IMG/VR virus record: IMGVR_UViG_3300020050_015145
Location: 8,208-72,207 of that record
Strand: one strand, 5' to 3'
DNA: 64,000 nucleotides
From: a virus
Taxonomy: Duplodnaviria > Caudoviricetes
Shown here: positions 52,345 through 58,442 of the stretch, in pieces
Numbering within the stretch: position 1 is the stretch's first letter
Layout: each line of letters starts with the position of its first letter
Notes under the pieces: generated by a model
Databases searched by the model: none
Told to the model about the DNA's origin: nothing
What the model saw: only the letters and a program-made list of their open reading frames with translations
Made by a program: the position numbers and the translations under genes

Positions 52345-52791
52345 TTATTGTTTATCATTTTGAAGTTGATTGCCCATCGCCCCGCCATTCTCACTTACAT
52401 ACACCTGCAGTTTTTCAATGTTTTCAACCATGCATTGCAGGTCAATGCGGGTATAGGTTTTAAAATGTATGGTCCTGTTTTTGGCAAGCAGATTAACAAT
52501 CTCGTTTTTAAACTCCGACAGCTCTTTGTTTGCCCGCCAGCCGTTACAGTCAAAACAGCAATAGATTTTATTGAACCTGTTATTATACCCGCCTTTTGAC
52601 ACAGGAACAATATGCTCAACGGTTCTTTTTAATGGCTTTTTAAACTTGCGCAAACAATAGCAGCAGGCTTTTACGCTCAGCCCGATTTGGTTTGATTCAG
52701 GCTCTTTTTTCCATCCCTCCAATATCTTGAATGCTTCCAAGTTGAATTTGGCAACAGGCACGGGAATGTTAAAGGTTTTGGAAGGCTTCAT
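52345..52791 (-). CDS. HNH endonuclease
   Basis: CCYC...TVEHIVPVSKGG.N...N....CFDCN. Confidence 0.85.
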   Translation of the reverse strand: MKPSKTFNIPVPVAKFNLEAFKILEGWKKEPESNQIGLSVKACCYCLRKFKKPLKRTVEHIVPVSKGGYNNRFNKIYCCFDCNGWRANKELSEFKNEIVNLLAKNRTIHFKTYTRIDLQCMVENIEKLQVYVSENGGAMGNQLQNDKQ

Positions 52792-54914: not shown

Positions 54915-54976
54915 CAAATATAATAAGATTTGCAAATATTAATAATAATACATAAAAATATTAATAATATACTTAC
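54915..54976 (-). promoter_or_regulatory. promoter element and operator
   Basis: Minus TATATTTG (54915-54922); 54956-54975 is identical to 42182-42201. Confidence 0.55.
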
Positions 54977-56775
54977 GCTAAATCAGCGTATCCCAGCTTT
55001 CTGAAGGTATCGTACTCAAAGCCCGTTAAGTCGTAACGAAATGTGTCACCGCAATTATGAACCAATATATTGTTGGCAAAAAACTCGGGGAGGCCTTCTA
55101 CTGTAAGGTCATAGACCGTCGCTATTCTTTCGGAGTTGGGCAGCGCAAGCTCGGGAGCAACATTTTGGCCCCGTGTATCGGCAGGCGCTGAATGTTTTTT
55201 TGCAATGAGGGCATTGGCGGTCAATGTGGTCAATCCTGTTAACTCTTCGGTACTTGGCTTTACAGGCTTGTTTTTCCATAGTGCTGACTTTGAGGTACTT
55301 AATTTACAAAATAAATCCCATCTCAGCAAGTGCTTTGCCTGAATAAAACCACGATTTTTTGTATAAATCGGGTGGTCGTCGGTGCAGGTAACTAAGTGGC
55401 CGTCCAGATTATAAGTTCTTACTTTTGCCGCTAATTCTGTGATCCCCGATGCCTTTACCCGTTTAAAACCTTTGCGAGTCAATACATATTCCCCCGTAGT
55501 TACCTGCTCAATTGGTTTAGAGCCGGTAAGAGTTTCCACCATTGTTCCCGCCACAAAGCAGTGTCCGTAGTCGAATTTGTCACAATCGGCCTTATTCAAT
55601 TTACCGTCGCTCAGTACCGACATTCGCGCAATGTCGCTCAGCAGTACCGTACAATTTTCCGAAATCACCAAATTGCTTTTGTAATAGCGAAGCAACGAAT
55701 TGCAAATCATGCGACTGGTATCCGTACCCAGGTTGAAGGTCGGCACGCGGTCAAAATTCACCCACGCCGCTTTGTATTTTTTGAAATAAGATTCGATGAG
55801 CGACCAAGCCGATACATTGCCCGTCGTAAGCGCACTTCCTCCGCGACCGCTGGCATCACCCGTACAAAAGATTTGGTTGCGTCCGTATTTTGCGGCCAGT
55901 TCTTTGACCAACGCCTCCAAATCTTCGCCATGCCCGCCCAGCATATAAAACTCTTCGATGTAATACACCTTTCCGCCATATCGCTGACACACCAAACAAC
56001 TGTTGCGCTTATTGAAGTCAAAAGATAGGTAAACAGATTCCCGTGGATTGTAGGCCACTTTGCCCGTCATGGTTTTTTTGTCGAAGTCCCGCAGGTAAGG
56101 ATTGCCGTTGATCAATACCCATTTGGCCTCGTACAAACTTTGGAAAATGTCATCGGGCAAGGTCTTTTTGGCATCTTCCACTTCTTCGCGGCTTAACAAA
56201 CCCGCCGACACGGCATCCCAACAGGTAATTTTATAATACGACCAGTCGCCTATCTCTCCTTTTTCAGCCTGTTCGGCCAGTTTACTGCCCCAGTGGTCGG
56301 GATGCGTTTTGTTGCCGATAAATTTTACTTTGGCCCGGGTTGCCGTGATTGTTGAGCGTAGCGCCCACCAACTTTCCTCTTTGGCCCGCGTGAATTCATC
56401 AAACACTGCTCCATACACGTCTTCCCCGTAGAGGTTATCAGGATTGTCGGCCGATTTAAACCAGATAATTGCCCCGTTCCAAAGGGTAAGTGTGAGCTTG
56501 GAAGTATTGAAGGAAACTTTCTTTTTGAGCGGTGACAAATACCGCTTCATGCGGGCATAAGCAATCGAGGCTTGGGCATACACCGGTGCGATCCACCAAT
56601 AATTGCGACCCTCTTTTCCTTCGGTCTTTGCCAGATTTATCAGCCAAACAATGTGGCTTGCCGTTTTGCCAGCCTTGGTGGAGGCTTCCGTAATGGTGAA
56701 GCGATTTTCATCCGTCAGTATTCTGCGTTGGTAATCAACCAGTACGGGAAAATTAAGCGTAATGGTTGCCGCCAT
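54973..56775 (-). CDS. terL: terminase large subunit containing an intein
   Basis: EASTKAGKT (Walker A), VFDE (Walker B), SFDFN and GDASG nuclease motifs; spliced product restores DYGH-CGDTFRY. Confidence 0.9.
   Translation of the reverse strand: MAATITLNFPVLVDYQRRILTDENRFTITEASTKAGKTASHIVWLINLAKTEGKEGRNYWWIAPVYAQASIAYARMKRYLSPLKKKVSFNTSKLTLTLWNGAIIWFKSADNPDNLYGEDVYGAVFDEFTRAKEESWWALRSTITATRAKVKFIGNKTHPDHWGSKLAEQAEKGEIGDWSYYKITCWDAVSAGLLSREEVEDAKKTLPDDIFQSLYEAKWVLINGNPYLRDFDKKTMTGKVAYNPRESVYLSFDFNKRNSCLVCQRYGGKVYYIEEFYMLGGHGEDLEALVKELAAKYGRNQIFCTGDASGRGGSALTTGNVSAWSLIESYFKKYKAAWVNFDRVPTFNLGTDTSRMICNSLLRYYKSNLVISENCTVLLSDIARMSVLSDGKLNKADCDKFDYGHCFVAGTMVETLTGSKPIEQVTTGEYVLTRKGFKRVKASGITELAAKVRTYNLDGHLVTCTDDHPIYTKNRGFIQAKHLLRWDLFCKLSTSKSALWKNKPVKPSTEELTGLTTLTANALIAKKHSAPADTRGQNVAPELALPNSERIATVYDLTVEGLPEFFANNILVHNCGDTFRYDLTGFEYDTFRKLGYADLA
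55054..55560 (-). mobile_element. mini-intein (169 aa) in TerL nuclease domain
   Basis: CFVAGTMVET...KPIEQV...CTDDHPI...VYDLTVE...FANNILVHN|C. Confidence 0.92.
55109..55279 (-). CDS. out-of-frame Cys-rich ORF nested in the intein (zinc-finger remnant)
   Basis: Manual translation MEKQACKAKYRRVNRIDHIDRQCPHCKKTFSACRYTGPKCCSRACAAQLRKNSDGL. Confidence 0.6.
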   Translation of the reverse strand: MEKQACKAKYRRVNRIDHIDRQCPHCKKTFSACRYTGPKCCSRACAAQLRKNSDGL

Positions 56776-57302
56776 CAGAAATTGATATTCACCGTTATTT
56801 CTTCGTCTTTCGGACCACCCAGTTTGCCGTGAACCTCCAACAGGGTTTTGATGGCATCTTTGCTGTCGTGCAATTCGATTTCAAAGAAAGTCGTTTCGGT
56901 TTTTACGCCTTCAACGGTGGAGGTCTTTGTAGTTTGCTTGATTTTCTTGATGAGGTGCAGGTTCTTTTGGGCTTCTTCGCTTGTCAAATCAAGCTTGATA
57001 TTTCCTTTTTCATCCACCTTCATAAAAGCAGCGAAGGTGCCGCGACCCATGTCGGCCAGTCGTTTGGTGCCTTCTTCGGGCTTCATGGCCAATTCGTCCA
57101 ATCTATCCGTAACCGCCTTTGAAATGTCGGGTTTAGTTAGGTTTTCGGCTCCGGTAGCCTTTGCAGCACTCTTTTTATACCCCGCTCGAATCGCGGCCTG
57201 TGTAGCATTGAAGTCAACACAATACTCTTCAATAAATCTTCTTTGTTTCGTAGTAAGTTTTGGCTCACTACCCGTACCCTCTGCCTTTTTCATATTAATC
57301 AT
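56775..57302 (-). CDS. terS: terminase small subunit
   Basis: LTTKQRRFIEEYCVDFNATQAAIRAGY...GAENL.KP. Confidence 0.92.
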   Translation of the reverse strand: MINMKKAEGTGSEPKLTTKQRRFIEEYCVDFNATQAAIRAGYKKSAAKATGAENLTKPDISKAVTDRLDELAMKPEEGTKRLADMGRGTFAAFMKVDEKGNIKLDLTSEEAQKNLHLIKKIKQTTKTSTVEGVKTETTFFEIELHDSKDAIKTLLEVHGKLGGPKDEEITVNINF

Positions 57303-57416: not shown

Positions 57417-58442
57417 TTAGAGGCCCCTAACGGAGAATTGCAATATGTTTTTAGCCGCGTTAACATCCCGCAAGTGCGAAGTATTACAACAGGAACATAC
57501 CCAATCCCTTACAGTCAAATGCCTTAGACCGCGTGGGCCTGAGCGTGAGCCACAGGACGAACACGTGACAGTTGACCAACTCTCGTTGACCTCTTTCATT
57601 TCGATACCAAGCCTAACGGCTTTAAATGCAAGCATCACTTTGAAGTCTGACCAAGAAGCATCTGAAACGCTTTTAGCCATCCGTGTCTTTATTAATTTGG
57701 AAGAACTCACATTGCCCACTACTATTTTGTCATACTCATTGACGATAGCGGTACTGACTTTGTGGTTCCAATCTTTTCTTTTATTCTTTATTTTGGCGTG
57801 AATAGCCGTGACACGCTTTTTCTTCTTTGCGCGTTGGGCAGCCGCTAATTTTGCCTCATACTTTTTGGTAAGATTTTCCCGATTGAATTCTACGCCGTCG
57901 GAAAGGGTTGCCAAGGTTTTTAAGCCTAAATCAATGCCGCATTCTTTACCCGTTTTTTCTCTGACTATTTCGGGCTGTTCAATCACAAAGTTTGCAAACC
58001 AATGGCCTTTAGAGTCCTGACAGAAAGAACCGAAACGAATCTTAGAATCAATCGGACGCGATAGCCAAAACTTAAACGTTTGCCCGTTGTAAGTGACAGT
58101 ATCGGCATTTACCTTTACGCCTACCCCTTTAAAGGGAATCCAACCCAGCGACTTTTTACGGCTTCTCCAATTGAGCTTACGCTTTTTGAACTGCTTGCAT
58201 GATTTAGCGTATTCTTCGCACACCGCCTGAACCGTTTGAGAGTGTAGCCCTAATTCTTTAGTGCAGCCAGCAGTTAAATTATTAAGGTCAAAAGCCGACA
58301 AAGGTTTGTCGAACTTTTTCCAACTTTCCTGATTGACCTCATTGCAGTAGTTCCAGATAAAATTGCACGACCAGCCCATTTTAACAAGTTTCTTTCTTGC
58401 TGTTGAGTCCTTGATTCGATATTGCAATGTGGTCAGGTTCAT
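57417..58442 (-). CDS. tnpB: RNA-guided endonuclease TnpB
   Basis: GIDLG, IVVGN, VNESWST, CSSC..CSCC, RDVNAAKN. Confidence 0.93.
   Translation of the reverse strand: MNLTTLQYRIKDSTARKKLVKMGWSCNFIWNYCNEVNQESWKKFDKPLSAFDLNNLTAGCTKELGLHSQTVQAVCEEYAKSCKQFKKRKLNWRSRKKSLGWIPFKGVGVKVNADTVTYNGQTFKFWLSRPIDSKIRFGSFCQDSKGHWFANFVIEQPEIVREKTGKECGIDLGLKTLATLSDGVEFNRENLTKKYEAKLAAAQRAKKKKRVTAIHAKIKNKRKDWNHKVSTAIVNEYDKIVVGNVSSSKLIKTRMAKSVSDASWSDFKVMLAFKAVRLGIEMKEVNESWSTVTCSSCGSRSGPRGLRHLTVRDWVCSCCNTSHLRDVNAAKNILQFSVRGL

Follow-up and report, generated by a model that had tools for sequence, protein, structure and literature searches.

Inteins whose homing endonuclease is encoded outside the intein's own reading frame, either in 'reading frame 3' or antisense to the intein, were described by Gosselin, Arsenault and Gogarten (bioRxiv 10.1101/2025.01.02.630785), who proposed that free-standing endonuclease genes had invaded inteins. 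The same authors predicted relics in the form of mini-inteins and split inteins, and noted that 'a survey strategy fine-tuned' to find them is needed. A hidden out-of-frame HNH endonuclease is also known from the ShiLan insertion in a mycobacteriophage DNA methylase (Arsenault et al., Genes 2025, PMC11855218), and fractured genes (Dassa et al., NAR 2009, PMC2677866) are split inteins whose halves flank a free-standing endonuclease gene. Here we analyzed a 64,000-nucleotide stretch of phage DNA (positions 8,208 to 72,207 of IMG/VR record IMGVR_UViG_3300020050_015145; hereafter the window) in which terL, the gene for the terminase large subunit (TerL), carries a mini-intein whose linker is overlapped by a short open reading frame (ORF) coding for a zinc finger in a shifted frame. 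We conclude that this mini-intein has very probably decayed from a two-gene mobile element, composed of an intein and an overprinted gene for an HNH_3-type homing endonuclease.

The locus resembles the inteins of Gosselin et al. in that a same-strand endonuclease is nested between the splicing blocks in frame 3 (equivalent to +2) while the intein frame stays open, and several of their inteins likewise reside in terminase large subunit genes (bioRxiv 10.1101/2025.01.02.630785). It differs in the enzyme, which here is an HNH_3 protein with two treble-clef zinc fingers, whereas their out-of-frame enzymes are endonuclease VII-like and their HNH inteins are in frame; in the phages concerned, which infect Acinetobacter, Clostridium, Rhodobacteraceae and, in one case, Tetrasphaera or are uncultured, as opposed to their actinobacteriophages; and in its state, the window holding only a decayed remnant, the stage that their paper said was still to be sought. 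With ShiLan it shares an HNH read in another frame than the insertion, which stays open in the frame of the host gene, but the ShiLan insertion lacks splicing domains and is not an intein, whereas the carrier here is a bona fide intein (PMC11855218). Like the fractured genes, the element has a separately translated endonuclease gene between N- and C-terminal intein parts; unlike in them, the intein is in one piece, with the endonuclease gene overprinted on it in a different frame, and the enzyme family differs, theirs being VSR-like (PMC2677866, as cited in bioRxiv 10.1101/2025.01.02.630785). Our literature search for inteins with an HNH in a different reading frame returned no match. The overprinted-endonuclease architecture proposed in a preliminary description of this sequence is real but not unprecedented (bioRxiv 10.1101/2025.01.02.630785): its kind is already known, the version with HNH_3 and zinc fingers is a variant, and what the window contributes is a decay series. 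A decay stage of inteins with a separate overprinted endonuclease gene had been predicted and was previously not shown.

The features of the shifted frame are the following:

55109–55279, minus strand: relic of an HNH_3 homing endonuclease gene, 56 codons, in the +2 (equivalent to −1) frame relative to TerL, complete with ATG start and TGA stop codons
55145–55213, minus strand: zinc finger 2 of the relic, ligands Cys23, Cys26, Cys41 and Cys45 (4/4 intact)
55109–55111, minus strand: relic stop codon (TGA), lying within the Tyr-Asp codons of block F (VYDL, 55105–55116)
55270–55272, minus strand: deletion junction, 465 nucleotides (nt) with HNH codons 4–158 of 211 lost, 1-nt microhomology (mapped against the relative L023)

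L023 is a close relative found by a protein search with the intein region. Its TerL of 756 amino acids (aa) is 76% identical to that of the window and is encoded by an uninterrupted ORF. The L023 intein is 324 aa long and occupies the same insertion site, and its +2 frame carries an intact 211-aa ORF that ends in two fingers and matches Pfam HNH_3 with 47.7 bits (cut-off 24.8). A structural model of this HNH frame reached a mean predicted local distance difference test score (pLDDT) of 85.6, and its best, though weak, match among solved structures was I-HmuI (Foldseek, E 3e-3). The relic consists of the first three codons of the L023 gene joined to its last 53, and 42 of these 53 codons specify identical residues. 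The relic is collinear with the L023 HNH gene in its start codon, its 3′ 159 nt and its stop, and the relic ATG aligns with the HNH start of L023 as well as with that of the more distant L005. The preliminary description had supposed that a frame-preserving deletion removed the catalytic core, and the 465-nt loss mapped against L023 bears this out.

A second relative, L026, has a 614-aa TerL 98% identical to that of the window and carries a separate deletion of 423 nt, which removed HNH codons 25–165. Because the window and L026 each retain sequence that is absent from the other, they go back to independent deletions from a full-length ancestor and not to a series of insertions. In two further members of the cluster, with TerL proteins of 432 aa (89% identical), the intein is precisely absent. 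One phage lineage thus displays the empty site, the full two-frame element and two decayed forms that arose by independent core deletions, with junctions resolved to the base. By the collinearity with L023 and the mapped junction, the window form descends from an intein with an out-of-frame nested homing endonuclease. The intact nested ORF is absent from the window, which has the remnant only, and present in L023 and nine other relatives.

The relic itself reads as the ancestral ATG plus two codons, the deletion scar, the end of zinc finger 1, zinc finger 2 and the ancestral stop; aligned to its homologues, it spans a complete finger 2, the linker ahead of it and, from finger 1, the final helix only. 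Searched with tblastn against 2.3 Gb of phage DNA, the relic matched a gene of Acinetobacter phage BP10 annotated as an HNH endonuclease (E 2e-6); in Highwayman, another Acinetobacter phage, and in Brochothrix phage BL3 the matches fell inside terL or at its end. We built a profile hidden Markov model (HMM) from 15 full-length HNH_3/zinc-finger endonuclease homologues, with the window excluded, and ran it against 1890 six-frame segments of the window. The relic scored E 7.8e-10 over profile positions 153–202 of 208, and the runner-up 0.47. The HMM match and the four aligned cysteines show that the C-terminal CxxC...CxxxC treble-clef finger module of the HNH_3 subfamily is present. By Pfam, the relic has no HNH_3 catalytic core (beta-beta-alpha-metal, His-Asn-His), the only hit of the 56-aa ORF being DUF2396 at E 0.14, and the alignment places the core in the deleted codons 4–158. 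PHROGs gave marginal HNH matches (0.006–0.008). No HNH_3 gene was found elsewhere in the complete 72-kb genome.

The preliminary description had further proposed that the ancestral intein carried a separate endonuclease in an overlapping frame, and had suggested a six-frame search of TerL inteins for longer versions. Ten full-length nested HNH_3 ORFs were collected from unrelated phages, all at offset +2 and with HNH_3 scores of 40–59 bits (cut-off 24.8), several of them in inteins at the very same TerL site as in the window. They come from Acinetobacter phage Highwayman (L001), Tetrasphaera phage TJE1 (L013), Clostridium phage phiCDHM19 (L014), a human-gut phage contig (L015), a Rhodobacteraceae phage (L017), four IMG/VR contigs (L005, L006, L007 and L008) and L023. 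Stops were counted over the 156–223 HNH codons of nine loci (L023 excepted): the TerL frame has none in any of them, and the remaining sense frame has 9–34. When synonymous codons of the nested genes were shuffled, the probability of zero stops was 0 to 0.125 per locus. In the same shuffles this frame, with 1.5–6 expected stops versus 14–37, proved by far the cheapest to keep open. This low cost may explain the constant +2 offset, in which case a single origin would not be required.

The way in which the two frames end and begin is also shared. In seven loci including the window the HNH stop lies at the identical place in the Tyr-Asp/Asn codons of block F, and this embedded position (−8 nt) is common to L001, L005, L007, L014 and L017 and also to L023. 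A start codon of its own, ATG or GTG, lies a few codons ahead of the conserved N-terminus in every full-length ORF and follows a Shine–Dalgarno-like motif in some. A scan for X_XXY_YYZ heptamers found scattered A-rich sites only, at no conserved position. Programmed −1 frameshifting into the HNH frame is not favored, and in intact relatives the HNH is presumably translated by internal initiation.

In the homing-cycle model, a fixed intein loses its endonuclease and becomes a mini-intein. For the element studied here, the intact form combines a stop-free intein frame with an HNH_3 gene, including two treble-clef fingers, in the −1 (+2) frame between the splicing domains; the HNH gene starts at a codon of its own and stops within the first codons of block F. 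A single deletion of 465 nt then took HNH codons 4–158, and with them the catalytic core, out of the window lineage. As its length is a multiple of three, TerL and the intein remained translatable and the 56-codon ORF was left automatically. The 600-aa precursor would be translated through a disordered linker, after which the mini-intein would splice out and restore the nuclease motif. Deprived of its own endonuclease, the mini-intein would no longer home alone and would spread vertically, or be copied if a co-infecting phage supplies a related HNH enzyme in trans.

Several observations weigh against regarding the relic as dead sequence. All four cysteines of finger 2 are intact, and this finger was kept in three independent truncations (the window, L026 and phage BL3), as retained function would predict. 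The comparison of dN/dS (omega) in both frames, another check named in the preliminary description, gave 0.25 for the finger frame and 0.67 for the TerL frame over the block shared with L023, although dN/dS on overlapping frames is confounded and such statistics are rough. The ORF might thus still be a working gene whose product, initiated internally at the inherited ATG, is a small DNA-binding zinc-finger protein; this protein might occupy the terL homing site, or modulate or hinder the related HNH nucleases that co-infecting phages bring in. This would explain why finger 2, start and stop were spared three times. We nevertheless consider it unlikely. Any deletion of a multiple of three preserves both frames, so that the ORF stays open without selection; the ATG and stop stressed in the preliminary description are present at exactly the positions given there (55279–55109), but they are simply inherited and are no sign that the remnant works as a gene. 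The retention of finger 2 is partly explained by the last ~17 codons, over which the intein frame codes for a structured segment immediately ahead of block F, and the sister deletions have no N-terminal part in common beyond three codons. A finger-frame omega of 0.25 is what would result had the endonuclease worked through most of the period after the window and L023 lineages separated, and the divergence from L023 may mostly predate the deletion.

Polymorphism within the lineage reflects the time after the deletion. Among ten DNA haplotypes of the window-type terL, the changes were distributed as follows:

N-extein, TerL frame, 1215 nt: 3 synonymous, 0 nonsynonymous
Relic, TerL frame, 168 nt: 2 synonymous, 2 nonsynonymous
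Relic, finger frame, 168 nt: 0 synonymous, 4 nonsynonymous (I/V, I/M, D/E, A/T)

The ratio of four nonsynonymous to zero synonymous changes in the finger frame speaks against a working gene and fits relaxed constraint on the relic, but this small count blunts the argument, four sites being too few for a formal test. No Shine–Dalgarno-like sequence was found upstream of the relic ATG, a promoter scan of the minus strand near the relic detected no sigma-70-like site, and the peptide matches no Pfam family. Given an inherited open frame, no ribosome-binding or promoter-like site and no other HNH_3 gene in the genome, we read the relic as a fossil that is most likely non-functional. Its peptide would lack nuclease activity and is probably not under selection.

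Less probable still is an endonuclease that was ancestrally in frame and became shifted by a compensating pair of frameshifts or an assembly error. In-frame HNH inteins do exist in phages (cited in bioRxiv 10.1101/2025.01.02.630785), but all ten full-length relatives, from independent isolates and assemblies, have the HNH at +2 with the TerL frame open, and the exact 600-aa TerL of the window occurs in 62 blocks of the assembly collection (24 contigs read). A chance open frame with cysteines, which the short length of 56 codons and the missing Pfam domain might suggest, is ruled out by the profile E-value of 7.8e-10 against 0.47 for the runner-up, the 42/53 identity to the C-terminus of the L023 HNH, the mapped deletion and a stop at the conserved position of the family.

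The decay of the nested endonuclease gene has consequences for annotation, because a deletion that keeps the host frame keeps the overprinted frame too, so that remnants resemble neat small genes. Annotators should be warned that short cysteine-rich ORFs in intein linkers can be fossils. The alleles described here also form a natural set for testing whether an endonuclease-less mini-intein can be mobilized in trans.

Divergence from L023 is unevenly distributed along terL. The N-terminal domain of the intein has a synonymous divergence (dS) of 0.59 and a nucleotide identity of 84%, versus a saturated dS of ~3.1 and ~69% identity in the N-extein. As the intein domain is far less diverged than the N-extein, the intein is much younger than the terminase split, and this sequence pattern points to horizontal transfer of the element. 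Within the ten haplotypes, variable sites reach 2.4–3.5 per 100 nt in the intein, about ten times their density in the N-extein (0.25 per 100 nt). Both patterns suggest that intein alleles were exchanged by recombination or homing.

The gene and the intein that carry the relic have the following features:

54973–56775, minus strand: terL, terminase large subunit gene, encoding a 600-aa precursor (431 aa after splicing; PHROG 2, E 2.8e-26)
55054–55560, minus strand: predicted class-1 mini-intein, 169 aa, TerL residues 406–574, with Cys1, TxxH, terminal HN and Cys+1
55297–55560, minus strand: N-terminal splicing domain, intein residues 1–88, pLDDT ~90, 84% nt identity to L023
55165–55293, minus strand: linker in the intein frame, residues 90–132, predicted to be disordered (pLDDT <50, no secondary structure)
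55054–55116, minus strand: C-terminal splicing region with blocks F and G, pLDDT 84–90, block F/G residues conserved in all relatives

The intein interrupts the C-terminal nuclease motif of TerL, and its borders (DYGH/C and VHN/C) are exactly those given in the preliminary description. Residues C1, T60, H63, H168 and N169 are invariant across the alignment of intein relatives. Pfam Hint_2 (26.9 bits) and Intein_splicing (26.2 bits) matched below their cut-offs, and in the AlphaFold2 model residues 1–88 and 140–169 have a pLDDT of ~90. In Foldseek the model matched the solved mini-inteins gp41-1, NrdJ-1 and Mtu RecA (E 2e-6 to 1e-4, probability 1.00), and the window intein is accordingly predicted to adopt the Hint fold and to belong to class 1. 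It is a mini-intein, with splicing domains and no functional endonuclease. The canonical mini-inteins (the Mtu RecA splicing domain, gp41-1, NrdJ-1 and Ssp DnaB) have the same fold and size class but, unlike the window intein, no recognizable endonuclease remnant in another frame. The linker, described beforehand as rich in Ser, Thr, Ala and Pro, consists of these residues to 44%, and TerL, an essential protein, would be made by protein splicing of the 600-aa precursor across its ~43 disordered residues.

Homologues of the nested enzyme also occur as free-standing genes beside terminase genes, in Pseudomonas phage PAE1 (Orf3), Lactobacillus phage CL2 (gp3), Acinetobacter phage BP10, Exiguobacterium phage vB_EauM-23, Sphaerotilus phage SN1 and Salmonella phage Shemara. 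They belong to the same family, being 34–50% identical to the nested Highwayman enzyme over 75–97% of its length, but are ordinary stand-alone genes, with 1–12 stops in the frame that is stop-free in the nested genes. These HNH_3/two-finger genes (L018–L022 and L002) thus adjoin terminase genes in six unrelated phages; five separate terL from the portal gene, that of BP10 lies upstream of terS, and this placement fits a family that targets terL.

Three loci depart from the common arrangement. In L007 (2795–3517) a closely similar intein with a nested +2 HNH_3 ORF sits at a different terL site and has Ser instead of Cys at +1, so the element seems to have switched insertion sites within the terminase. 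In Brochothrix phage BL3 (L003, NC_015254, 727–2607) terL is annotated as gp2 and gp3, which are in the same frame; gp2 stops in frame inside the intein linker, gp3 restarts 10 nt further on with the C-terminal intein part and the C-extein, and a 40-codon zinc-finger relic in the +2 frame spans the gap. This arrangement suggests that in BL3 the same overprinted-HNH element gave rise to a naturally split intein, or 'fractured gene'. In Clostridium phage phiCD119 (L016, NC_007917, 201–2595) terL is annotated in three pieces (ter1, ter2 and ORF3) with the same HNH ORF as phiCDHM19 in the +2 frame of ORF3. This record is probably a mis-annotated intein-bearing terL or a disrupted copy.

The source genome is that of a complete uncultured phage of 72,207 bp with direct terminal repeats. 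The Pfam Terminase_3 match of TerL is weak, and terS lies immediately upstream of terL (56775–57302; Pfam Terminase_2, 79.5 bits). Directly upstream of terS is a TnpB/IS605 OrfB-like gene (57417–58442, minus strand; Pfam Cas12f1-like_TNB 63.7 bits, OrfB_IS605 44.9 bits). About 2 kb downstream of terL, a separate gene on the minus strand (52345–52791) encodes a 148-aa HNH protein (Pfam HNH PF01844, 28 bits), whose HNH family is different from that of the intein relic.

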